Shown: positions 13,026-64,000 of the stretch, one piece after another
How the letters are laid out: every line of letters starts with the position of its first letter
How positions within the stretch are numbered: the stretch's first letter is position 1
Source: a candidate division Kazan bacterium RIFCSPHIGHO2_01_FULL_44_14
GTDB lineage: Bacteria; Patescibacteriota; Kazan-3B-28
Assembly (NCBI GenBank): GCA_001771185.1
Contig: METB01000001.1
Coordinates: forward strand, 503,200 to 567,199
Direction: 5' to 3'
DNA: 64,000 nt
Notes under the pieces: generated by a model
Told to the model about the DNA's origin: nothing
The model's input: only the letters and a program-made list of their open reading frames with translations
Database searches by the model: none
Position numbers and translations under genes: made by a program

Positions 13026-13112
13026 CCGCTCCGTTTTCCTGTCTGTCATCCTGAACTTGATTCAGGATTTAGATGCTGAAATAAATTCAGCATGACAGGA
13101 AAACGGAGCGGG
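13026..13112. terminator. Composite palindromic element: 19-bp outer stem (cccgctccgttttcctgtc / gacaggaaaacggagcggg) enclosing two inner hairpins
   Basis: lies between convergent murJ and the 13127 gene; the inner motifs gtcatcctgaa...ttcaggat and gatgctgaa...ttcagcat recur at 38150-38192 and 53413-53440. Confidence 0.55.
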
Positions 13113-15913: not shown

Positions 15914-16115
15914 ACCAAACGCAAGCTGGCGTTTGATCCAGCGTCTCTTTTTGCTTGTCCAAAAAGAGACATGAAAAAAGACACCCAACTTACCAATTGC
16001 TATCTGAAATACAAAATTTTCTTTCTGGCTTTCGGCAAACTCGGAGCTAGCCGGCTCCTCAAACAGTGCCTTCGCTGCGAAAATTTTGCATACAGATAAC
16101 GCAATTGGCTCGATG
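15914..16115. repeat. Dispersed mosaic repeat, family B copy
   Basis: ccaaacgcaagctggcgtttgatccagcgtctctttttgcttgtccaaaaagagaca is near-identical to 63885..63950; ttttctttctggct, caaacagtgccttcgctgcgaaaatt and ttcgatggg segments recur at 32530-32730, 37990-38130 and 53530-53830. Confidence 0.7.
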
Positions 16116-21414: not shown

Positions 21415-21477
21415 TAATCAATTGGTCTAAAATGACCAAAAAGAATGTGCTATGATTTAAAGGGTCAAGGGGAACCT

Positions 21478-22197
21478 ATGGGGAAATCAAAAACTGTCTT
21501 ATTGTTAGTTGGATTATTTACAGTGATAGCACTGGCAGGTGTTAGTTGTAGCCGTGGTTTACAGACAACCGATAATGCAGTTGACAATACGCTGGACAAC
21601 ACGGTAGCAGATAACGCAGTTGTTGACAACACGGCAGTAATCAACCCAACCAATCAAACCACCACGACAGTATCTAGTTCTGGTTTGCCAGACCCAGCCA
21701 GCGTTAAGGCCAGTTTGGCCACTGAAACATCTGGTGCAGAGACAGCAGTCAAAACATTGCAGGCAGATGCAGTATTGCAGTTGGTATCGATTAAGTTCAT
21801 CAATTCACTGTCTGACCAGACCGGGTTATCGACTAACTATTACATTTACGCGTCAGCTTCGAATCCTAACTTCTACTATTTGGTGAACATGCCAAGAAAC
21901 GGTGAGAAGTTGAAGCGGTTCTTAATGCCGGTTGAGGATTTGGATTTGCCGTTTGATTTGTTGCAGATTCCAGTTAAGTATTGGAAATTGTCTTACGCGG
22001 AGGCCCTACAAAGTGTTGAGCAACGAGGTGGCAGTGATTTTCGGGCTAAGCACAAAACCTTTGAAGTGTCGGCGATTCTGGCAATTCCAGCTGGCCAGTA
22101 CTTGAGTTGGTTTGTGACTTATCGGGCGACCGATGGAACCGGAGATGTGTTGAAAGCGTCGGTGGATGCAAATTCGGGTGCAGTCAGTTTGATTTGA
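21478..22197 (+). CDS. hypothetical secreted protein with N-terminal signal peptide and DN(A/T)-rich repeats
   Basis: MGKSKTVLLLVGLFTVIALAGVSC signal-like N-terminus; start taken at the internal ATG with RBS. Confidence 0.5.
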   Translation: MGKSKTVLLLVGLFTVIALAGVSCSRGLQTTDNAVDNTLDNTVADNAVVDNTAVINPTNQTTTTVSSSGLPDPASVKASLATETSGAETAVKTLQADAVLQLVSIKFINSLSDQTGLSTNYYIYASASNPNFYYLVNMPRNGEKLKRFLMPVEDLDLPFDLLQIPVKYWKLSYAEALQSVEQRGGSDFRAKHKTFEVSAILAIPAGQYLSWFVTYRATDGTGDVLKASVDANSGAVSLI

Positions 22198-22206
22198 CGA
22201 AAACGG

Positions 22207-22440
22207 ATGATTATTTTCGTTATTTCCGTGCCCGTCCGCAACGATTCGCCAGCCCGTAGTGGATACAACATTTCTGGCGGGCGTAGCGATTCTGGCAGGA
22301 AAACGGGAATCCAGAAAGAAACTGACGTCCTTGCGTCATCCTCGGGGCCACCGCTAGGTGGAGCCCGGGGAACCAGACATAAAAAGATTTTTATTTTCTT
22401 TTCTAAATCCCCGGGTCAAGCCCGAGGATGACTTAAAGGA
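22207..22440. repeat. Composite repeat: family A palindromic element (22231..22312) plus a gtcatcctcgggg...cccgaggatgac hairpin element (22336..22432)
   Basis: 22231..22312 is near-identical to 49186..49267; the 22336..22432 inverted repeat shares gtcatcctcggg / gagcccgggga / aaaaagatttt with 55845..56030. Confidence 0.75.
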
Positions 22441-32439: not shown

Positions 32440-32880
32440 ACGCCCCGCTTGACTGGGCGGTTCTTTTACCACCCCATTTGCTTGCCTGCCTGCCGGTAGG
32501 TAGGTCCAAATGGGGTGGTGCCCCAAAAGACACCCCACTCACAAATTATTAGCCAAACAGAAAAATTTTCTTTCTGGCTTCCCGCCCGCACCGCATACGC
32601 GGAGCGTTTCGGGCAGGTCGGCGAGCTCTCTCCCTTCGGTCGTTCAAACAACGCCTTCGCTGCGAAAATTTCTCTATTGGCTGACATAATTTGTTCGATG
32701 GGTCCCAACAGAAATAGATAACTTCGTCCTAGGGCCATTTAAAAGAAGCTCAATTCAGCCTGCCTGCCGGTAGGCATACTCCGATATTCGATTAAGAAAA
32801 AATAATTTCTCGGTTAGCACGGGACCTCGCTGCTCATTTTTTCCACATTTATAATAACAAAACAGAGCCGTTAGGCGATT
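32440..32880. repeat. Repeat-rich spacer (family B mosaic copy plus gcctgcctgccggtagg motifs)
   Basis: segments shared with 15990-16115, 37990-38130, 53530-53830 and 63950-64000; the ataacaaaacagagcc motif also occurs at 49006. Confidence 0.6.
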
Positions 32881-34766: not shown

Positions 34767-34843
34767 GGGCGTGTAGCTCAGTTGGTTAGAGCGCTGTCCT
34801 GATAAGACAGAGGTCCCTGGTTCGAATCCAGGCACGCCCACCA
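34767..34843 (+). tRNA. tRNA-Ile (anticodon GAU)
   Basis: cloverleaf; anticodon loop ctgataa; encoded CCA. Confidence 0.85.
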
Positions 34844-36357: not shown

Positions 36358-36981
36358 CTACTTCTCCCAATACTTTTCTTCGATATTTCCAGCAAAGTAT
36401 TCGTAGCGTTCAAGGGTAAAAAGTAAATCCGACAACCGATTGGAAAACTTGCGGATGACTGGGTCAACTTCTTCGGTTTCAGCTAACGAGACAATCATTC
36501 GTTCGGTTCGGCGACAAGTAGTTCTGGCAACTGACAAAAATGCCCCGGCTTTGTTTTGCCCTGGGACAATAAAAGTGGTGATAGGAAGCAAATCGGTATT
36601 GAAATAATCAATGCATTTTTCTAGTCCGGTCACTTCTAGTTCAGTGATGATTGGTAACCGAGCTGGCCCGCCTGCAGCGCTATGCCAGCCCGCAGTAGTT
36701 ACAGCGTTTCTGGCGGGCGTAGCATTGCGGGCAGGGTCAGTATTGTTTAGTGGGCTAGCCAAAATTGAAGCACTATTCATTAATTTATGCTGAATCCGCT
36801 CCAGCAGTTTTTTAATATCAGGCACATTGCTAAAAATTTTGGCCACACCGATGGCGGTATTTAATTCATCAATCGTTCCGTAGGTCTGCACTCTTAAAGA
36901 GGCCTTACTAATCCTGGGGCCGTTAAACAGGCCAGTAGTACCGTCATCGCCTTTGCGGGTATAAATCTTGGGGAGTTCCAT
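36358..36981 (-). CDS. PduO-type ATP:cob(I)alamin adenosyltransferase carrying an in-frame insertion of a family A repeat
   Basis: N-terminus MELPKIYTRKGDDGTTGLFNGPRISK...; ~30 extra residues (NNTDPARNATPARNAVTTAGWHSAAGGPARLP) are encoded by the repeat copy at 36667..36735. Confidence 0.8.
   Translation of the reverse strand: MELPKIYTRKGDDGTTGLFNGPRISKASLRVQTYGTIDELNTAIGVAKIFSNVPDIKKLLERIQHKLMNSASILASPLNNTDPARNATPARNAVTTAGWHSAAGGPARLPIITELEVTGLEKCIDYFNTDLLPITTFIVPGQNKAGAFLSVARTTCRRTERMIVSLAETEEVDPVIRKFSNRLSDLLFTLERYEYFAGNIEEKYWEK
36667..36735. repeat. Family A palindromic repeat copy inside the adenosyltransferase coding sequence
   Basis: cccgcctgcagcgctatgccagcccgcagtagttacagcgtttctggcgggcgtagcattgcgggcagg is near-identical to 53982..54051 and related to 22231..22312 and 49186..49267. 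Confidence 0.8.
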
Positions 36982-37163
36982 CCCTCGGTACCTCGGGATT
37001 ACATCTATAACAAGTTATCTTATCAGACCTCTGATAGAATGGAAATACTAAGTCCAAAGCACGAAATCTTGAACAAGCACCGAATCGCAATTGTTATAAA
37101 TAATGTTTGGGATTTAGAATTTGGAATTTGTTTAGTATTTAGATATTAGGATTTAGAATTTAA

Positions 37164-37919
37164 TTGTTTATGGCTACCATTAAGACATCGGGGATTATTA
37201 TCAGGAAGTTGAATCTGGGCGAAGCAGATAAGATTTTAACTGTGTTAACGCGTGACCGAGGGAAAATTCGAGTGCTGGCCAAAGGAGTCAGACGACCCAA
37301 AGCCAAGTTGTCTGGATTCTCGGATATTTTTCATTACAACGATTTTATTTTGGCCGAAGGACGCAATTGGGACATTGTAACCTCGGCTGTAACAATAGAA
37401 CGATTTTTGCGGGATGATACGGCTTTGGAGCAAATCGGTTTGATGTATTATGTTTGCGAATTGACGGATAAATTGATTGAAGAGACCCAGACCGTTCTGG
37501 GTAGTTTTGAATTATTGCGAGAGACATTAGCGTATATGAAAAATCATCCTGGCTCTACCATTGCCAGAAGTTATTTCGAAATGAAATTATTAACTTTACT
37601 GGGTTTTGCGCCCCAGTTAAATCGATGTGTGGTAGGTGGTCAACTATTTAAAGACGACGAACAATTGCGTTTCAGTTGTATTTTGGGCGGGGTGGTATCC
37701 AAAGCTCACAGTACGGCCGATGAATTGGCTCGGCCAATTTCGGTTAATGCCTTGAAATGGTTGCGGTTACTTCAGCGATATCCCTTGGAGGGGATTGATA
37801 AAATAAAAGTTGATGATGACACAATCAAGCAAGCGACTAGCGTGTTGTCGGATTTTGTGGAGTATGCAACAGAAGTAAAGACCAAGTCATTGTTGGTAAT
37901 GGGGCAATTGGAGGATTAG
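37164..37919 (+). CDS. recO: DNA repair protein RecO
   Basis: N-terminal OB-fold (GIIIRKLNLGEADKILTVLTRDRGKIRVLAKG) and C-terminal zinc-binding region. Confidence 0.8.
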   Translation: MFMATIKTSGIIIRKLNLGEADKILTVLTRDRGKIRVLAKGVRRPKAKLSGFSDIFHYNDFILAEGRNWDIVTSAVTIERFLRDDTALEQIGLMYYVCELTDKLIEETQTVLGSFELLRETLAYMKNHPGSTIARSYFEMKLLTLLGFAPQLNRCVVGGQLFKDDEQLRFSCILGGVVSKAHSTADELARPISVNALKWLRLLQRYPLEGIDKIKVDDDTIKQATSVLSDFVEYATEVKTKSLLVMGQLED

Positions 37920-46259: not shown

Positions 46260-46520
46260 ATGTCTTAATTTGTTTTCCCGAATCCGCCAGCTGGCGGACT
46301 GAGGGAATACACTTTTCTTATCCGTCATTCTGGCTCCCGCCTGCAACGATGTAGCATCTTCGGGTAGGTGACCAGAATCTTTTTCTTTCCAAGGGTCTAC
46401 GCCACCCTTGATGGGCGGTTACTTTCGTCTTGGCGAAAGTAACCAAAGCCGTGGCCCGCTCACCAATTCAGTTGCCACAAACCAAAATCACCCTTTCTGG
46501 ATTTAACCGCAAACTTGCTA
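46260..46520. repeat. Cluster of small palindromic repeats (ccgccagctggcgga palindrome, a cgtcattctggct hairpin element, a partial family A copy, and a family B tail)
   Basis: motifs are shared with 52885-52960, 62758-62810, 53445-53520 and 63950-64000. Confidence 0.65.
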
Positions 46521-47977: not shown

Positions 47978-48201
47978 TACAATTCCCTTTGTTTAGTTTA
48001 TATATACGCGTATAGATAAATCCTATTTGTTTTTCGACCCTATTATCAAAGGACTGCCGTCGCTTTGATACTCGCATTATAACCAAAAAGTCCCCAAATC
48101 GCTAGTCCGCAAAGCTACCCAGCCCGCATGTTGTAGCACTATGGGCGGACGATTAGCGTTGCTGGCGGGCTAGTGAGCCATTTGGAGATGGATAAGAAAA
48201 A

Positions 48202-48758: not shown

Positions 48759-49078
48759 GATATTCCCCCTTGTTCTGCTAAGGGCTTAAATTTATCAGGT
48801 GTCAAACTCCTGATAGGCCCCGGACAGTACATCTGTCAAAGAACGCCCCTATCCTACCTGATTTACGGGTGGTTGTCAAGTAATAATGGGCTCTGGGAGC
48901 CACTTATATCTGGTGCCCTAGGAGAGACTTCCACCGTCGTTCAATTCTGCTGTACAGCAGAATATCACTTATGAGCGGACCTTGCTTCTCGTCCTTTCAT
49001 ATCTACAATAACAAAACAGAGCCAAATGGCTCAGTTTCGTTATGGTGGGCCAGCCCGCATTGCTACGCAAAGCGTTGC

Positions 49079-49163
49079 TGGTGGGCGCGAGAGGACTCGA
49101 ACCTCCACGGATTGCTCCACTAGCTCCTAAAGCTAGCGTGTATACCAATTTCACCACGCGCCC
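49079..49163 (-). tRNA. tRNA-Leu (anticodon UAG) with a long variable arm
   Basis: cloverleaf; acceptor gggcgcg; anticodon loop tttagga; ~13-nt variable arm; encoded CCA. Confidence 0.8.
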
Positions 49164-49169
49164 TCGTCG

Positions 49170-49335
49170 CAACGTCATTCCCGCACCCGTCCGCAACGAT
49201 TCGCCAGCCCGTAGTGGATACAACATTTCTGGCGGGCGTAGCGATTCGGGCAGGAAGGCGGGAATCCAGAAAGAAAAATAAAAAACTTTTTCCTGTTTCT
49301 GTCTGGATCCCGGCCTTCGCCGGGATGACAAGATA
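49170..49335. repeat. Family A repeat (49186..49267, near-identical to 22231..22312) flanked by gtcattcccgc...gcgggaatcc and gtcatcccggcgaaggccgggatcc hairpin elements, directly upstream of tRNA-Leu
   Basis: a short family A relative (ccagcccgcattgctacgcaaagcgttgctggtggg, 49049..49084) also lies on the other side of the tRNA. Confidence 0.75.
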
Positions 49336-49344
49336 AAATTATTT

Positions 49345-50085
49345 TCAAACAGTCACTAAATCTTTCAACTGTCCAAAGATACTGTCGCCAATTCCTGGCA
49401 CATCCATCAAACCATCAATACTCTTAAATGGTCCTGAAAGCAAGCGATAGTCAATAATTCGTTGAGCCAGTACCGGTCCAATCCCGGGTAATAATTCCAA
49501 CTCGCTACTTTCAGCTGAGTTGATATTTATTTTAGTACCACTTTCTGAAGTGATATTGGTGGCTGGAACATTGGAGTTGCTGGGTGGTACATAACTTTCG
49601 CCGATTTTAGGAATATAAATTTTACCATGGTTGGTCAGTTCTTGGGCGCGATTAATTGAATGGGCAATTGCGTCTAAATCGGCTCGACGACTGAATCCGC
49701 CGGCCGAGTTGATGGCGTCTTCGACAATTTTTCCAGCGTCCAACCAATAGACGCCAGGTTTAATTACGGCTCCAGCAATATCAACTACCAGTTTGCCGTT
49801 GGTGGGGTTGGCGGTTTCTGAATTGGCAATCGACTCTATCTCGCCAGCAGTTTTAATATCTGGTCCTGCTAAAGTACTTCTGGGTGGCGTTAGCATTAAA
49901 TACACACCCAAACTCAATATCAACAGTAAACCGCCGAAAATGTAGTAGCGGTATTTTTCAAAGAAATCTGATTCTGGGGGATCAGGCGTGAGTGTAAAAG
50001 GTGAGAGCGGTGTCTCCATAGCGTTTATTGTTCCAAATCCGAAGATTTGGATTCTGGGGCGGTTCTTTATCACTACTGTGTTCAA
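49345..50085 (-). CDS. comEA: ComEA-like DNA-binding protein (helix-hairpin-helix)
   Basis: C-terminal tandem HhH (LELLPGIGPVLAQRII...LMDVPGIGDSIFGQL); N-terminal TM helix. The annotated start overlaps rsmD, so the true start is probably downstream. Confidence 0.7.
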   Translation of the reverse strand: MNTVVIKNRPRIQIFGFGTINAMETPLSPFTLTPDPPESDFFEKYRYYIFGGLLLILSLGVYLMLTPPRSTLAGPDIKTAGEIESIANSETANPTNGKLVVDIAGAVIKPGVYWLDAGKIVEDAINSAGGFSRRADLDAIAHSINRAQELTNHGKIYIPKIGESYVPPSNSNVPATNITSESGTKININSAESSELELLPGIGPVLAQRIIDYRLLSGPFKSIDGLMDVPGIGDSIFGQLKDLVTV

Positions 50086-50506: not shown

Positions 50507-50627
50507 CCAATTAAATTCTAAGCGCTAAATCCGAAATTCTAAACAAATCCTAAATCTTAATGTTCCAAATAATTTGTGATTTTGGGTTTGGAATTTGTTT
50601 AGATTTTAGTGTTTCGGATTTCGTATT

Positions 50628-52661
50628 TTATTCACTATGAGCCGTAATGGCTTCTAGATTAATTCGTTTAGCCAACTCGGGATATTTTTCTAAAGTGATA
50701 TCCTCGTCCAATATAGCATTAGCCGCGTCTTGAGCCCGTTTGATGGCTCGGGTATCAGTCCAGTTGGCTAACCGATAATTGAGAAATCCGGATTGAGCAT
50801 GGCCAAAGATTGCTCCCGGACCGCGCAACTGCAAATCAAGTTCGGCCAATTTAAATCCGTCGAGGGTTTTGGCGAATAGCCCTAACCGCTCCGTAATTTC
50901 TGGGGTATGGTCGGTTGGAATCACAAAACAATATGATTGCAGTTCACTTCGGCCCACTCGACCGCGCAGTTGATGAAGTTGGCTCATCCCAAATCGTTCG
51001 GCGCCTTCAATTAACATGACGGTCGCATTGGGAATATCAATTCCGACCTCAATCACGGTGGTAGCCACTAAAATATTTAGTTTGCCGGTTTTAAAGTCCG
51101 TCATTACATCGGTTTTTTGGTCAGAAGTTAACCGGCCGTGCAACAAGCCAACTTTGGCATGCGGGAAAATCCTTTGAATATTTTTATATTCGGCTTCGGC
51201 CGATTTAGCGGAAAGTTTGGTACTGATTTCAATCAGAGGAGTAATCACGAATACTTGATGGCCATTTTCGATCTCGTTTAGCATCCGTTTGTAGGCCACC
51301 TGACGGTGGTTGGATTCTAGAGCTTGGGTGATAATTGGTTTTCGATTTAGGGGTTTGTGCGGAATGACCGAAATGTCTAAATCGCCGAATACAGTTAAAG
51401 CGAGTGAGCGGGGAATCGGAGTGGCAGTTAGTGAAATAAAATGGGGAGTTGTTCCATTGTTCATTTTGTTTTTCAGGGCTTCGCGCTGTTTAACTCCAAA
51501 CCGGTGTTGTTCATCAACGATTACCAAGTTTAAATTATTAAAATGCATACTGGTCTGGATTAACGCATGGGTACCAATAAAAACGCTGGCATTGTCTGGA
51601 CCAGCTTGATAGGCCTGGGTACGCAGGGCGCAATTCACTCCGAATTCTTTTAATAAGGGAGCAATTGAAAAGTAATGCTGACGGGCCAACACTTCAGTTG
51701 GCACCATTAAGGCCGATTGAAAGTTTTGTTTGGCGGCTAGGGTCATTAAGATGGCAACTAAAATTGTTTTGCCCGAGCCAACATCGCCTTGCAGCAAACG
51801 GTTGGTGGGTTTGCCGTCGGCTAAATCCTGCAAGATTTCCCAGAGAGCGCGTTTTTGGCCATTGGTTAATTGATAAGGCAATTTGGCCAAAATTTGTTTG
51901 ATCAATTCAATATCGGTGGCAATTGGTTCGGCTGATGCTTGTTTCAAAAATCTTTTGACACTCTGTACGGCCAATTGGGTGAGTAGTAGTTCATCAAATC
52001 CCAATCGATCTTTGGCGATTTGCAATATTTCCAAGTTTGCCGGAAAGTGAATCCCTTCTAGGGCAATGGAGAGATCGGTCAATTGATATTGTTGCCGAAT
52101 AATTGTTGGCAGGTAGTCGGGGAGTTGGCGGATAGTTGGAAGCAGGGTTTTGATTAGTCGGCGAAAGATTTTGGTAGTGATTCCTAAACTTTCTGGATAA
52201 ACTGGAACGATTCGACCGCTATGTAGGGGAGTGCGTTCTTCGCCGGCGGTTTGAGTGGGCTCTAAACTAGGACTCATTAAAATTAGTCCTTTAGCATTTC
52301 GTTCAACTTTGCCGGTCAAATAATATTCAGTTCCTTTTTTGAGGGTAGTTTTAAGGTAGGGTTGGTTAAACCAAACGACAGGGATAGAGCCGGTTTCATC
52401 GCTCAAAATCCCTTGGGTTAGCATCATCCGCCGGCGAGGAGTACGAAAGGCGGAGAAGGTGGTTAAATGTGCTCTAACCGTGGATTTGGAGCCGTCCGCC
52501 TGAAGTTCAGCGATGGGGGTTAGGTGAGTGAGGTCTTCCCAGGCCCGGGGGAGGTGGTAGAGCAGGTCAGAAACGGTTTCTAGGCCCAAAAACCCCAGTT
52601 TTTGGGCAATGGCCGGACCGATACCGGGGATTTTGGTTAGGGATGAGGTAGGGGAGAGCAT
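50628..52661 (-). CDS. recG: ATP-dependent DNA helicase RecG
   Basis: wedge domain plus SF2 helicase motifs (GDVGSGKT, DEQHRFG, QLRGRVGR). Confidence 0.9.
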   Translation of the reverse strand: MLSPTSSLTKIPGIGPAIAQKLGFLGLETVSDLLYHLPRAWEDLTHLTPIAELQADGSKSTVRAHLTTFSAFRTPRRRMMLTQGILSDETGSIPVVWFNQPYLKTTLKKGTEYYLTGKVERNAKGLILMSPSLEPTQTAGEERTPLHSGRIVPVYPESLGITTKIFRRLIKTLLPTIRQLPDYLPTIIRQQYQLTDLSIALEGIHFPANLEILQIAKDRLGFDELLLTQLAVQSVKRFLKQASAEPIATDIELIKQILAKLPYQLTNGQKRALWEILQDLADGKPTNRLLQGDVGSGKTILVAILMTLAAKQNFQSALMVPTEVLARQHYFSIAPLLKEFGVNCALRTQAYQAGPDNASVFIGTHALIQTSMHFNNLNLVIVDEQHRFGVKQREALKNKMNNGTTPHFISLTATPIPRSLALTVFGDLDISVIPHKPLNRKPIITQALESNHRQVAYKRMLNEIENGHQVFVITPLIEISTKLSAKSAEAEYKNIQRIFPHAKVGLLHGRLTSDQKTDVMTDFKTGKLNILVATTVIEVGIDIPNATVMLIEGAERFGMSQLHQLRGRVGRSELQSYCFVIPTDHTPEITERLGLFAKTLDGFKLAELDLQLRGPGAIFGHAQSGFLNYRLANWTDTRAIKRAQDAANAILDEDITLEKYPELAKRINLEAITAHSE

Positions 52662-54112
52662 AGGGGCAATTAAAAATTACAAATTAAAAATGACAAATGG
52701 GGGATAGGGATAAGTTAAAGGTGAAAAGTCCTCCTCCGTTCTGCTGTACAGCAGAACTACGGAAGGATCTGCGATGAAAAGTTAGGGAAGGGATAATGAC
52801 AAATTAAAAATTAAAAATGGAGGATAAGGGGAGAGTGTATCTTCAATTTAACCAATTTATCCAATCTGTACCAATCTAACCAAAGCATTGTCATCCCGAG
52901 CGTAGTCGAGGGATCTAGTGGCTAGATTTCTTCATCCCGCCAGCTGGCGGAAGTCGGGATGACGCCCATATCTGGTGAGTGTCCAATAATTGGCTCTGGG
53001 AGCGATAAAACTCTTGACTGACCCTGATAAATAGAGTATACTTAAAGGATAACAGAAGAGCGGTCCCTCGGGGGACTCGGGAACAGCGAGGGACAGCCAA
53101 AGGAGGGTGGTTATAGCAAATTAACAAACCACCGAAGAATGCAAAAATCGCAAAAAATCATCGATTTTTCCGGAATGCAGTTTGATGCCAATCGGCGTCC
53201 CAGCTGGCGTTTGCGTCAGAAATCTAGAACCATGCGGTCTCGTAATCATGTTGCTCGTAATGTTCGTACCATTGTTCAAAATATATTCGGAATGTAAGTT
53301 GGCTCTGACTCGTTCAAGCGTGTGGGTTAAAGATCGGTTTGAAAGTTTAGTGGTAGTGATGGAATCATTTACTGCGGGATTAGGACTGTAGTTTTTTTAT
53401 TTTTTCCCGTCATCCTGAACTTGTTTCAGGATCTATTTTTCTTATCCGTCATTCTGGCTTGCGTAGCCCTTCGTAGCTCGGAGAGCGTAGTAGGGTCCAG
53501 AATCTTTTTTATTTTCTTTTTCGAGCGTAGAATGACGCTCGACCCATTGGCACTTTTTGCTTGTCCAATATGCTTTTGCAACGCCTGTGTCGCGTTGCAT
53601 CGACAGCCACTTTGTCTTGGCAAAGTGGCTCAAACCGCTGGCCAACGTCCTCGGACTTATTCACTGACTAAATCTCTGGGTGTTCCCGCCGAACTCCTCC
53701 TCATTTCATTCGTCGTCAAACATGCGGCTTCACCCACCGAGATTTAGTTCAGTTCAGAACAGTCCTCGTCCTAGGGCCAATTAAGAAGAAAACAGAAGAC
53801 ACAGTTTGTTCGATGGGTCTTGGATGAAATTGGCCCTTCAGTGAAGGGTTGTTCTGAATTGAGCTAAATCCTCGTTACAGGGAGATGTTTGAGTCCTGCT
53901 GTCCAGCAGGACGAGTTTCGACCATTAGCAGAAAGAGGATTTAGCCAATGAATAGACCCGGAACTGTCCGGGCCACGGCTTCCCGCCTGCAACGCTATGC
54001 CAGCCCGTAGTAGATACAACGTTTCTGGTGGGAGTAGGCATTGCGGGCAGGTTGTTACTTTCCTTTGGGACGGAAAGTAACGGCGGGTTGAGCGTCGCCT
54101 TGCGCTCAAAAA
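52662..54112. repeat. 1.45-kb non-coding, repeat-dense region (family A copy 53982..54051, family B mosaic 53530..53830, and gtcatYc hairpins at 52885..52960 and 53410..53540)
   Basis: no ORF with protein-like composition; multiple segments match repeats elsewhere in the window. Confidence 0.7.
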
Positions 54113-55303
54113 CTATTTCAACTGCAAAAATTTTCTCTTCCCAACTTGAATGATGGTGCCTTTTTTGGGAATCACTTCAAAGTTAGCATCTGAAATTACC
54201 TGGTGGTCAACTTTGACACCGCGTTGTTCAATTAATCGTTTAGCATCGGATTTAGAACTGGCCAAGTTGCTCTCGACTAACAGGTCAGCCAATCCCCTAG
54301 CTTTTTTTAAATTATACGATTCCATTTCGTCTGGCTCACCTTTGGTTCTAAAGACCCGAACGAAGTTTTCTTCGGCTTTTTTAGCTAACATCTCACCGTG
54401 ATACATCGAAGCGATAGCAAAGGCCAGTCGCATTTTAATATCGCGAGGGTTGGTCTTGGTAGATTTCAGCAACTTTTTGATTGCACTTAATTCATTGGCC
54501 GAGATATTGGTTGCCATTTCAAAATATGTGGCGATGCATGAATCCGGCAAAGACATAATTTTACCGTACTGGCTATTAGCATCTTCAGTAATCCCGATAT
54601 CATTGCCCAAACTCTGGCTCATTTTTTGTTTGCCGTCTAAACCAACTAATAATGGGACGGCAATAATTGCTTGCGGGGCCTGGCCGAAATCAACTTGCAA
54701 ATCTCGACCACGCATTTCATTAAAGATTTGGTCAGTACCAATTACTGTGGCATCACTTTCAATCGCGACAGAATCGTAGCCCTGCAACATCGGATAGATT
54801 GGTTCATGGAAACCAATTTCAAGTCCTGCCTTCATTCGTTTTTGGAACATGTCTCGCTCAATCATTTGAGCATAAGTAAAATGTCCCATTAGTCGGATTA
54901 AATCTTCGGCCGACATTTTGTCTAACCATTCACCGTTGTAGCGGATTTCGGTCTTTTTCGGGTCTAAAATCGTTAAGGCCTGGCGAATGTAATGTTCGCT
55001 CATTTTTTTAACTTCTCGGGCGTCGCGTAAAGTGCGGGTTTTTTCTTTGCCAGTCGGGTCACCGAATCTGGCGGTAAAATCACCAATCACATAGGCCACA
55101 GTGTGGCCGAGTTCCTGGAACTCGCGGAGTTTGTGATAGACAACCGAGTAACCCAAATGTAAATCGGGTGTGGTTGGGTCCACGCCATGTTTAATCCGCA
55201 GTTTCCGACCAGAGCCAAGTTTGGCTCGAAGTTCTTTCTCGCCGATGATTTTATCAACTCGACGAGTCAGCAGTTCTTTTAATTGAGATTGACTGGGTTT
55301 CAT
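54113..55303 (-). CDS. tyrS: Tyrosyl-tRNA synthetase
   Basis: HIGH-region variant TPDLHLGY; KMSKS variant KMSQS; C-terminal S4-like domain. Confidence 0.85.
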   Translation of the reverse strand: MKPSQSQLKELLTRRVDKIIGEKELRAKLGSGRKLRIKHGVDPTTPDLHLGYSVVYHKLREFQELGHTVAYVIGDFTARFGDPTGKEKTRTLRDAREVKKMSEHYIRQALTILDPKKTEIRYNGEWLDKMSAEDLIRLMGHFTYAQMIERDMFQKRMKAGLEIGFHEPIYPMLQGYDSVAIESDATVIGTDQIFNEMRGRDLQVDFGQAPQAIIAVPLLVGLDGKQKMSQSLGNDIGITEDANSQYGKIMSLPDSCIATYFEMATNISANELSAIKKLLKSTKTNPRDIKMRLAFAIASMYHGEMLAKKAEENFVRVFRTKGEPDEMESYNLKKARGLADLLVESNLASSKSDAKRLIEQRGVKVDHQVISDANFEVIPKKGTIIQVGKRKFLQLK

Positions 55304-56030: not shown

Positions 56031-56157
56031 AGCTACGGATGGGCAGGGTGCTATAATGTAAGCCGTTACTGGTTTAATATCCAAATTCCAAATTTCAAAC
56101 TCCAAAGGAGATGTCCCTATTTGGTTATTGTGATTTGATGATTGATTATTACGAGCA

Positions 56158-62641: not shown

Positions 62642-62875
62642 ATCCGCCTACCAATTCACCCCAAAGGGGCCCCGTTGGGGCTAAATCACTATTTCACTAA
62701 ATCACTTTTTCACCCTTTAGGACAAGCCAAACAGTATTGTCACCCTGAACTGACCGGCCTACGGTCATCCCGAGTCCGCCAGCTGGCGGATCGAGGGATC
62801 TATCTTGTTTCAGGGTCTATTTGTGTATAGGATGGGGGCTGGGGGATATATGAGTAACCCCGAGGAGAAACAAAG

Positions 62876-63784: not shown

Positions 63785-63884
63785 TCTTATTGCCTGAGCT
63801 TGTCGAAGGCCTACCTATTCGTCATCCCGGACCTGATCCGGGATCCATTCTCCAAGCGCCTGCGCGGCGCTTGACCCGCGGGAA

Positions 63885-64000
63885 CCAAACGCAAGCTGGC
63901 GTTTGATCCAGCGTCTCTTTTTGCTTGTCCAAAAAGAGACATAAAAAGGACACCCAATTCACAAATTTCTAGCCAAAATAGAAAATCACCCTTTCTGGAC
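63885..64000. repeat. Family B repeat copy (near-identical to 15914..15990) running to the window end
   Basis: ccaaacgcaagctggcgtttgatccagcgtctctttttgcttgtccaaaaagagaca. Confidence 0.7.

Follow-up and report, generated by a model that had tools for sequence, protein, structure and literature searches.

The 64,000-nt stretch of DNA analyzed here (contig METB01000001.1, positions 503,200 to 567,199), which we call the window, comes from a candidate division Kazan bacterium and carries on its minus strand a gene for a PduO-type ATP:cob(I)alamin adenosyltransferase. Inside this gene lies a 69-nt segment that is a copy of a non-autonomous repeat family of GC-rich imperfect palindromes, widespread in Patescibacteria, the candidate phyla radiation (CPR). 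The gene and the parts of the inserted copy are as follows.

36358..36981, minus strand: gene for the PduO-type ATP:cob(I)alamin adenosyltransferase, an intact, stop-free open reading frame (ORF) of 207 aa
36667..36735, minus strand: inserted 69-nt palindromic element, 23 whole codons (83-105) encoding the peptide PARNATPARNAVTTAGWHSAAGG; a clean gap in loci L001, L002, and L003
36667..36683, plus strand: left 17-nt arm of the copy, CCCGCCTGCAGCGCTAT, "form A" in our tabulation of arms and cores from 38 copies
36684..36718, plus strand: 35-nt core of the copy, GCCAGCCCGCAGTAGTTACAGCGTTTCTGGCGGGC, with one A>T relative to the common core (alignment A8)
36719..36735, plus strand: right 17-nt arm of the copy, GTAGCATTGCGGGCAGG, which holds both differences between the window and L004

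A preliminary description of the locus, made from the sequence alone, had placed a repeat of ~70 nt inside the PduO-type ORF without a break in the reading frame. Our analysis bears this out: the 207 codons are free of stops, and the protein matches PF01923 (Cob_adeno_trans) over residues 6-193 with an E value of 8.5e-49 and 166 bits (cut-off, 24), covering profile positions 1-170 of 171. The coordinates given for the repeat, 36667..36735, are exactly those of the inserted 69 nt in both DNA and protein alignments. The length of the added peptide had been overestimated at ~30 residues; it amounts to 23 (residues 83-105, PARNATPARNAVTTAGWHSAAGG), and the PARLP that follows is native.

We then compared the protein with its relatives among 5.8 billion sequences. 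The closest, P0001, is also 207 aa long and near-identical, with 1 residue different. P0002, P0003, and P0004, all of 184 aa and 94, 88, and 83% identical outside the insert, lack exactly 23 residues, and after them comes a long series of homologues of 177 to 198 aa. In a 60-sequence alignment, a segment equivalent to the insert is missing in all 59 aligned homologues, whose identity to the window protein runs from 94% down to 43%. The insertion point, which the preliminary description had proposed to fix by such an alignment, thus appears as a 23-aa gap, with no equivalent native segment in any of the 59.

The coding DNA of P0001 to P0003 was retrieved, and loci L001, L002, L003, and L004 were aligned with the window at the DNA level. 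A single clean gap of 69 nt separates L001, L002, and L003 from the window and L004. The empty site is GAC/CCNGCTCG (the slash marks the insertion point), and empty alleles read ...AACAAYAYYGAC/CCSGCTCG.... In the filled alleles of the window and L004, 69 bases are added from a codon boundary on, CCTGCCCGCAATGC...GCTGCAGGCGGG in the direction of the gene. Two nt (CC) at the junction can be assigned to either side, so that 36665-36733 is an equally possible placement. L004, an independent assembly, has the same insertion and matches the window with 99.96% identity across 4,559 nt; the frame claimed to be unbroken is open in both assemblies. Only two differences were found in these 4,559 aligned bases; they are adjacent, both lie in the right arm of the insert (36719..36735), and together they turn that arm into a variant found in other copies (GTAGCGATGCGGGC). 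Their position inside the insert hints at conversion between copies or at a raised mutation rate in the palindrome. The aligned alleles date the insertion to after the split from the L001 lineage (dS, the number of synonymous substitutions per site, ~0.43). The comparisons confirm that the insertion is real and that a selfish palindrome has entered the gene in frame, in the manner of the Rickettsia palindromic elements (RPEs).

The insert was located in the protein fold by comparison with solved structures and by modeling. Sequence matches to the 207-aa protein in the PDB always consisted of two blocks, query residues 1-81 and 110-206, that are contiguous in the PDB chains. An AlphaFold2 model of the protein based on 60 homologues had a mean predicted local distance difference test score (pLDDT) of 88 and a predicted template modeling score of 0.82. 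The pLDDT was 93-99 in the helices at residues 29-50, 54-74, 114-128, 144-169, and 174-197 and 44-63 over residues 81-110, and almost no secondary structure was predicted between the helices at 54-74 and 114-128. With Foldseek, the best matches of the model were the PduO-type adenosyltransferases of human, Burkholderia, Lactobacillus, Bacillus, and Mycobacterium (TM to target, 0.88-0.93), and the host protein is predicted to share the five-helix-bundle fold of the solved PduO-type enzymes. A structure prediction had been suggested to see whether the insert forms a surface loop; AlphaFold2, applied to the monomer, predicts an unstructured, low-pLDDT loop between helices 2 and 3. The mobile loop of PduO-type enzymes is an N-terminal beta-hairpin, human residues 68-80 (PMC8633584); according to the model, the insert lengthens the connection between helices 2 and 3 and not this mobile loop. 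In the protein alignment, no stretch differs more among homologues in sequence and length than the connection between helices 2 and 3. Because the insert sits in this most variable loop, the window protein keeps every column that is invariant (24) or nearly invariant (25) in the 60-sequence alignment (A4), having itself been included when the columns were defined. For the window gene against L001, we obtained a dS of 0.43 and a dN/dS of 0.067; the gene family is thus under purifying selection, as measured over the combined window-L001 branch and not over the post-insertion period alone. A tryptic peptide that the insert-bearing protein could give is, for example, NAVTTAGWHSAAGGPAR.

Every copy of the element that we retrieved was checked for a long open frame across it, and the host proteins were checked with Pfam. 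In-frame hosts among the loci retrieved are MetRS, MnmA (two copies), DNA polymerase III delta (HolA), ThrRS, TsaD, GyrB, and YchF, together with a DUF362/Fer4 (ferredoxin) protein, an AMP-binding enzyme, and a class-V aminotransferase (Aminotran_5). A protein search with the eight open-frame peptides of the element added IF-1, ATP synthase epsilon, IscU, UvrA, the ArgRS anticodon domain, SecA, and YbeY, as well as a glycosyltransferase (GT2), a PduL-like protein (PTAC), a GIY-YIG nuclease, a pilin, and a PAS protein. Altogether, the element or its modules are read in frame in proteins of more than 20 Pfam families, encoded in genomes and metagenomes of Patescibacteria, in agreement with the RPE-like behavior that the preliminary description had suspected from the single PduO copy. 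Comparison of IF-1 and IscU with solved structures revealed ~25-30 extra residues between conserved blocks. Intragenic copies make up 9/34 of the exact-core copies from the genome scan, 6/48 from the metagenome scan (some duplicating genome-scan loci), and 1/4 in the window, or about one-fifth of the copies sampled; most of the others lie a short way downstream of genes. The frames used by nearly all intragenic copies are the two hydrophilic phase-0 frames (PARNATPARNAVSTAGWHSVAGG or PARNATPARSRYSVSGGHSVAGG), with grand average of hydropathy values of -0.2 to -0.6. Proteins of a recognized family rarely use the hydrophobic phase-1 frames, and phase 2 contains stops. This bias fits selection after insertion; it does not show that the element is designed for coding. 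The proposal that intragenic copies be tested for preserving the frame more often than chance turned out to be uninformative, because the element is intrinsically 69 nt long and never shifts the frame.

Searches with a profile of the 23-aa peptide yielded little: 12 matches, almost all of them short ORFs, among 1.84 billion cluster representatives, and 5 short ORFs in the word-indexed database of 5.8 billion proteins, where the known carriers were not recovered. The sparse yield from the cluster representatives probably arises because the 50%-identity clusters are represented by insert-free proteins.

Several individual hosts carry unusual arrangements. P0014 (L038 10067-10108, JBAZNQ010000001.1) is a distant PduO homologue from Patescibacteria with a diverged unit made of the arms only, in frame and 13 aa long (STRNATQSVVGGG); it occupies the N-terminal hairpin, a site other than that in the window PduO. 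The MnmA gene of L009 (minus strand) has a canonical in-frame copy at 721-787 and a second 69-nt in-frame insertion at 1377-1443, of arms within arms (RLHRYACPKLLHCCGRAKHCGQA), which directly follows the conserved ATGHYAR motif of MnmA and is read in the phase that has stops in the canonical element. Another MnmA homologue (L075 2552-3925) contains repetitive inserts of the types ...SHESRVAS..., ...SRESRVAG..., ...SSLVTRH..., and SLATHHSQLVTHNSLLATRY; these resemble in-frame copies from another repeat family, and such peptides are not present in the long ORFs of the window. The GyrB gene of L029 (3-2339) has the element in frame near its N terminus together with an intein (Pfam Intein_splicing, residues 537-683); two selfish insertions of different kinds thus share one essential gene. 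In the PduL-like protein P0128 (PF06130), an insert of the 69-nt type is followed at once by one of the arms-only type (PARNAAPACKAVATAGRHSVAGG PARNAAHSAAGG), which is a tandem or nested in-frame insertion.

We then analyzed the anatomy of the element. The canonical form has 69 nt, in which two arms of 17 nt enclose a 35-nt core (GCCAGCCCGCAGTAGATACAGCGTTTCTGGCGGGC). The arms occur in two mirror forms, CCCGCCTGCAACGCTAT...GTAGCATTGCGGGCAGG or its reverse complement about the same core, and the core is therefore found in both orientations relative to the arms. Parts of the element also exist separately: 36-nt arms-only units at L014 1053-1088, L014 5614-5649, and window 49050-49085, and the core alone or within other hairpins in L006, L023, L045, and L060. 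Multilayer nested copies were found in L008, L014, and L018, and arms-in-arms versions at L009 1377-1443 and window 48104-48171. The simplest reading of the sum 36 + 33 = 69 is that a small hairpin gains a second unit at its apex, with a junction ambiguity of 2 nt (GC). That 36, 33, and 69 are all multiples of three is suggestive, the chance of this being about 1 in 9. The element is stop-free in four of the six frames; since ~44% of composition-matched shuffles have at least four open frames (shuffle mean, 3.0-3.3), this number is ordinary for its composition, and we rejected the idea that the element is adapted for coding.

The window copies fold into long imperfect hairpins. For the insert as RNA, the folding energy of the hairpin is -34.8 kcal/mol in the mRNA sense and -38.9 kcal/mol for the opposite strand (z scores, -2.8 and -3.9). 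The 17-nt arms are imperfect inverted repeats: over 26 positions, 78.5% of the alignment cells pair, versus 34-42% when the partner columns are slid. Selection on RNA structure is unsupported, as the covariation test on 30 distinct 69-mers came out empty. A known structured RNA was rejected as well: Rfam gave no gathering-score match over the whole window, and around the insert (36560-36840, E up to 10) it gave only chance-level matches, with E of at least 0.7.

A repeat search of the window returned four copies of ~70 nt, at 22230-22299, 36666-36735, 49185-49254, and 53981-54050 (family D1), three of which are intergenic, and the relatedness of the copies that had been noted at 22231, 49186, and 53982 was thereby recovered. 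A 31-mer from the repeat had 0 matches in 100 shuffles and is not expected by chance. The window copies score E values of 1e-17 to 2e-19 with nhmmer, having themselves been among the sequences used to build the model. The earlier list of copies was right for these four and omitted the shorter arms-only relatives at 49050-49085, 32581-32617, and 46336-46368 and the nested one at ~48104-48171; its description of the 53982..54051 copy as nearly identical to the PduO copy was too generous, as the two are ~87% identical, with one indel. We searched the window for in-frame copies besides the one in PduO and found none. The other members of the family in the window are listed below.

22231..22299, plus strand: intergenic 69-nt copy, 33 nt past the ORF at 21445-22197, enclosed by an outer palindrome ATTTCCGTG..AACGGGAAT
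49186..49254, plus strand: intergenic 69-nt copy with a tRNA gene on one side and the ORF at 49345-50085 on the other, nested within a GTCATTCCCGC..GCGGGAATCCAG hairpin
53982..54051, plus strand: intergenic 70-nt copy (one extra base) between the convergent ORFs 53421-53747 (plus) and 54113-55303 (minus)
49050..49085, plus strand: 36-nt arms-only element, CCAGCCCGCATTGCTACGCAAAGCGTTGCTGGTGGG, at the 3' end of a tRNA gene
32581..32617, plus strand: 37-nt arms-only variant, CCCGCCCGCACCGCATACGCGGAGCGTTTCGGGCAGG, intergenic
46336..46368, plus strand: diverged arms-only element inside a GTCATTCTGG..CCAGAATC hairpin
~48104..48171, plus strand: nested arms-in-arms relative, intergenic

The copy at 49186..49254 is also present in the independent assembly L051. 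The arms-only unit at 49050-49085 shares a few bases with the encoded CCA at the 3' end of the tRNA gene 49082-49163 (minus strand), and the full 69-nt copy stands on the opposite side of that gene. Copies of the 69-nt family sit within hairpins of the GTCATTC...GAATC type at 49174-49270 and 46324-46379. In other genomes, copies of the element are surrounded by short tandem-like flanks similar to the AT-rich TTTAGAATTTGGAATTTG-like repeats of the window; the L013/L039 copy, for example, is bordered on either side by the 14-nt direct repeat TACTTTCTATTTTC.

To map the distribution of the element, we scanned for the core pattern, with an exact core match required in each collection. The scan of one genome per prokaryotic species gave 33 loci, and a metagenome scan gave 48 more. 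Nearly all of the 33 genome loci come from Patescibacteria (Moran-, Curtiss-, and Nomurabacteria, Paceibacterota, Saccharibacteria, and Parcubacteria), and identical 69-mers are common to different species-level genomes. The L059 copy has both private variants of the PduO copy, which points to copying from a variant source and not to local evolution. Two copies (L019 1847-1913 and L035 5912-5978, CAZYTL010000005.1) lie on an 88-kb contig of a metagenome-assembled genome labeled "uncultured Gammaproteobacteria"; this is either a misbinned Patescibacteria contig or a case of the element outside the CPR.

Among known repeat systems, the RPEs are the closest in behavior. RPE-1 to RPE-10 of Rickettsia (Ogata et al. 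2000, 2002) are summarized in PMC10969869; they share with the CPR element a hairpin-forming sequence with no coding capacity of its own, copies both between genes and inside many unrelated housekeeping genes that are always read in frame, and hosts with small, reduced genomes. The peptide encoded by RPEs falls where the fold tolerates insertion, and that of the CPR element is predicted to do so. The two differ in length, 69 nt against ~100-150 nt, and in hosts, the CPR/Patescibacteria superphylum against one alphaproteobacterial genus; its length sets the CPR element apart, and we do not file it as an RPE. Unlike RPEs, moreover, it has near-identical copies across class-level lineages and is built of modules, a 36-nt hairpin and a 33-nt core that can face either way, nesting like Russian dolls.

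REP (repetitive extragenic palindromic) sequences and the REPINs that they form are mobilized by RAYT (REP-associated) tyrosine transposases, and intragenic GTAG-tagged REPs have been described (Di Nocera et al. 2013; PMC3733652; PMC3116915). Like the CPR element, they are GC-rich imperfect palindromes that lie mostly downstream of genes, often as inverted pairs forming a longer hairpin, without target-site duplication, with a GTAG tetranucleotide, and with occasional intragenic copies. In a REP, however, an unpaired GTAG (or CGTC) stands by definition as a tag at one end of a palindrome of 20-40 nt (PMC3733652), whereas the CPR element has its GTAG in the core and at positions 53-56 (where the right arm starts on the side of the loop, by the apex), not at the foot of the stem. 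Furthermore, no RAYT/IS200-like gene was seen near the CPR copies (~600 kb around 86 copies), the intragenic share of about one-fifth is far above that of usual REPs, and REPINs are mostly inherited vertically, whereas the CPR element is common to distant lineages.

Miniature inverted-repeat transposable elements, or MITEs, that fuse in frame with bacterial genes include ERIC, BOX, Correia/NEMIS, and cyanobacterial MITEs (reviewed in PMC10969869). They resemble the CPR element in being short, non-autonomous, bounded by terminal inverted repeats, and translatable within a host ORF. The CPR element differs by its lack of target-site duplication (the PduO junction is ambiguous by only 2 nt), by being much shorter than most MITEs, and in that no parent insertion sequence with matching ends was found among the loci, where every solitary arm proved to be part of a short unit, arms-only or nested.

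Fungal and algal mitochondria, too, have mobile GC-rich palindromic clusters and double-hairpin elements. These are likewise short GC-rich palindromes in AT-richer compact genomes that insert into each other and occasionally in frame into coding genes; they differ from the CPR element in their organellar setting and in their sequences, which are not known to be related. A related case is described in PMC4524435. We conclude that the CPR element is a new family of a known kind of in-frame palindrome. In the literature that we searched, the sequence of the element or of its peptide was found in no paper, and no link of Patescibacteria to REP, REPIN, or MITE elements was found.

We regard it as very probable that a copy of this widespread CPR palindrome has been inserted into the PduO gene at a permissive loop and is read through, leaving the gene intact. 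The copy entered at a codon boundary, in the variable region between helices 2 and 3, after the lineage parted from that represented by L001 (dS, ~0.43). With 69 nt, equal to 23 codons, no frame shift is possible; the frame used is free of stops, and the peptide is hydrophilic and rich in Pro, Ala, Gly, Asn, Arg, and Thr. With this length, frame, and peptide, the ribosome would read straight through, and the enzyme would gain a flexible loop of 23 residues, with its five-helix bundle and conserved motifs kept. The insert-bearing protein is probably still active, and the insert would be a tolerated, near-neutral passenger in a permissive loop. As to mechanism, our suggestion, of low confidence, is that an enzyme acting on the hairpin makes the copies in trans without duplicating the target, in an HUH/Y1-like or a recombination/template-switch-like mode, and that a liking for other hairpins would yield the nested copies.

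A number of observations weigh against this account. We infer mobility from the distribution of the copies, and the near-invariance of the core is partly a matter of ascertainment, since the scans demanded the core. No linked transposase or autonomous parent emerged when 583 ORFs of at least 120 aa in ~600 kb of flanks from 86 loci were clustered (no recurrent neighbor), and a crude motif scan for IS200/RAYT in the same ~600 kb and in the window was negative. Direct repeats of 2 to 4 nt in the flanks did not exceed those of shuffled pairings (for 2 nt, 1 versus 2.9 expected); there is thus no consistent target-site duplication, and the classic MITE mechanism is unsupported. The stem lacks compensatory covariation among the 30 distinct 69-mers, with 0 double changes and pairing below that of shuffled controls. 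Purifying selection is measurable only on the combined branch to L001, not after the insertion alone, and activity of the modified enzyme is presumed. Complementarity between the flanks of copies was not above chance; targeting of hairpin apices has individual nested cases in its favor but no statistical support.

Whether as a peptide or as a hairpin in mRNA or DNA, the insert could instead have been recruited to a function, for example, as a binding loop or in the control of translation or mRNA stability, and be kept by selection. The presence of the insertion in two slightly different strains, the recurrence of one peptide frame in many proteins, the very well conserved core, and the strong hairpin (-35 to -39 kcal/mol) would agree with such an exaptation. 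We nevertheless consider it very unlikely, because the host proteins are functionally unrelated, most copies are intergenic, the stem shows no compensatory changes, the peptide is predicted to be disordered, and the closest relatives manage without the insert; in addition, the sole differences between the strains fall inside the insert, the opposite of what constraint would produce.

We also weighed whether the insertion has inactivated the enzyme, so that the gene is a young pseudogene whose frame is open only through the 69-nt length and the little time available for decay. CPR bacteria have a reduced metabolism, and their need for a PduO enzyme is uncertain; moreover, the insertion is recent (absent at dS of 0.43, with the window and L004 nearly identical), so that selection after it is not measurable. 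This reading is very unlikely in our judgment, given that the insert lies in the most variable loop with the invariant and nearly invariant columns kept (the window protein being among those that define them), that the AlphaFold2 fold is confident outside the insert, and that the essential IF-1, SecA, GyrB, and aminoacyl-tRNA synthetases carry the element in frame, from which it follows that read-through with retained function must be common. Still more improbable, and already close to refuted, is that the segment is ancestral to the PduO clade and was precisely deleted in the relatives or that it is an assembly artifact, with a repeat collapsed into the gene. Palindromes can be precisely excised by slippage, and repeats do produce assembly errors in metagenomes, but all 59 aligned homologues, from 94% to 43% identity, are without the segment, which is 81-88% identical to the intergenic copies elsewhere in the window, and two independent assemblies that are 2 nt apart agree on both junctions.

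Beyond the tolerated PduO insertion, we tentatively propose a previously undescribed, CPR-wide modular palindrome system, a possibility that we hold with much less confidence. In it, a 36-nt hairpin would take a 33-nt core into its apex either way and nest, would move within genomes and between class-level lineages by a mechanism directed by hairpins, without target duplication or a linked transposase, and would be a major ongoing source of the lineage-specific loop insertions in essential CPR proteins such as IF-1, SecA, GyrB, and tRNA synthetases.

In-frame selfish palindromes in protein genes have so far been treated mainly as a peculiarity of Rickettsia, and a 2024 review of MITEs called their in-frame spread outside Rickettsia only "conceivable" (PMC10969869). 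The same behavior is now seen in Patescibacteria, a very large group of ultrasmall bacteria with dense genomes, where core genes of translation, replication, and secretion are affected. If our interpretation is true, the element would be a concrete source of lineage-specific insertions in CPR proteins, a trap for their annotation, alignment, and structure prediction, and a second, independent system for asking how such elements move and why proteins tolerate them. With empty and filled alleles and near-identical strains at hand, the dynamics of insertion are testable in existing groundwater time-series metagenomes and metaproteomes.

The window contains further repeats. Small hairpin repeats of the type GTCATCCTGAACTTGATTCAGGAT are found at 13045-13071, 53409-53435, and 63821-63847, and others of the type TCCCGAATCCGCCAGCTGGCGGA at 46276-46306, 52929-52959, and 62768-62798; a pair of 64-nt repeats, 98% identical, lies at 15914-15977 and 63884-63947. 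AT-rich intergenic repeats of TTTAGAATTTGGAATTTG-like units occupy 37106-37172, 50508-50560, 50573-50639, and 56075-56106, one of them just upstream of the RecO gene beside PduO. The alignment of L004 to the window ends at a tRNA gene starting at 34767, and that of L051 ends at 53817, ~165 nt before the 53982 copy; these breaks in synteny may be points of strain-level rearrangement or insertion.

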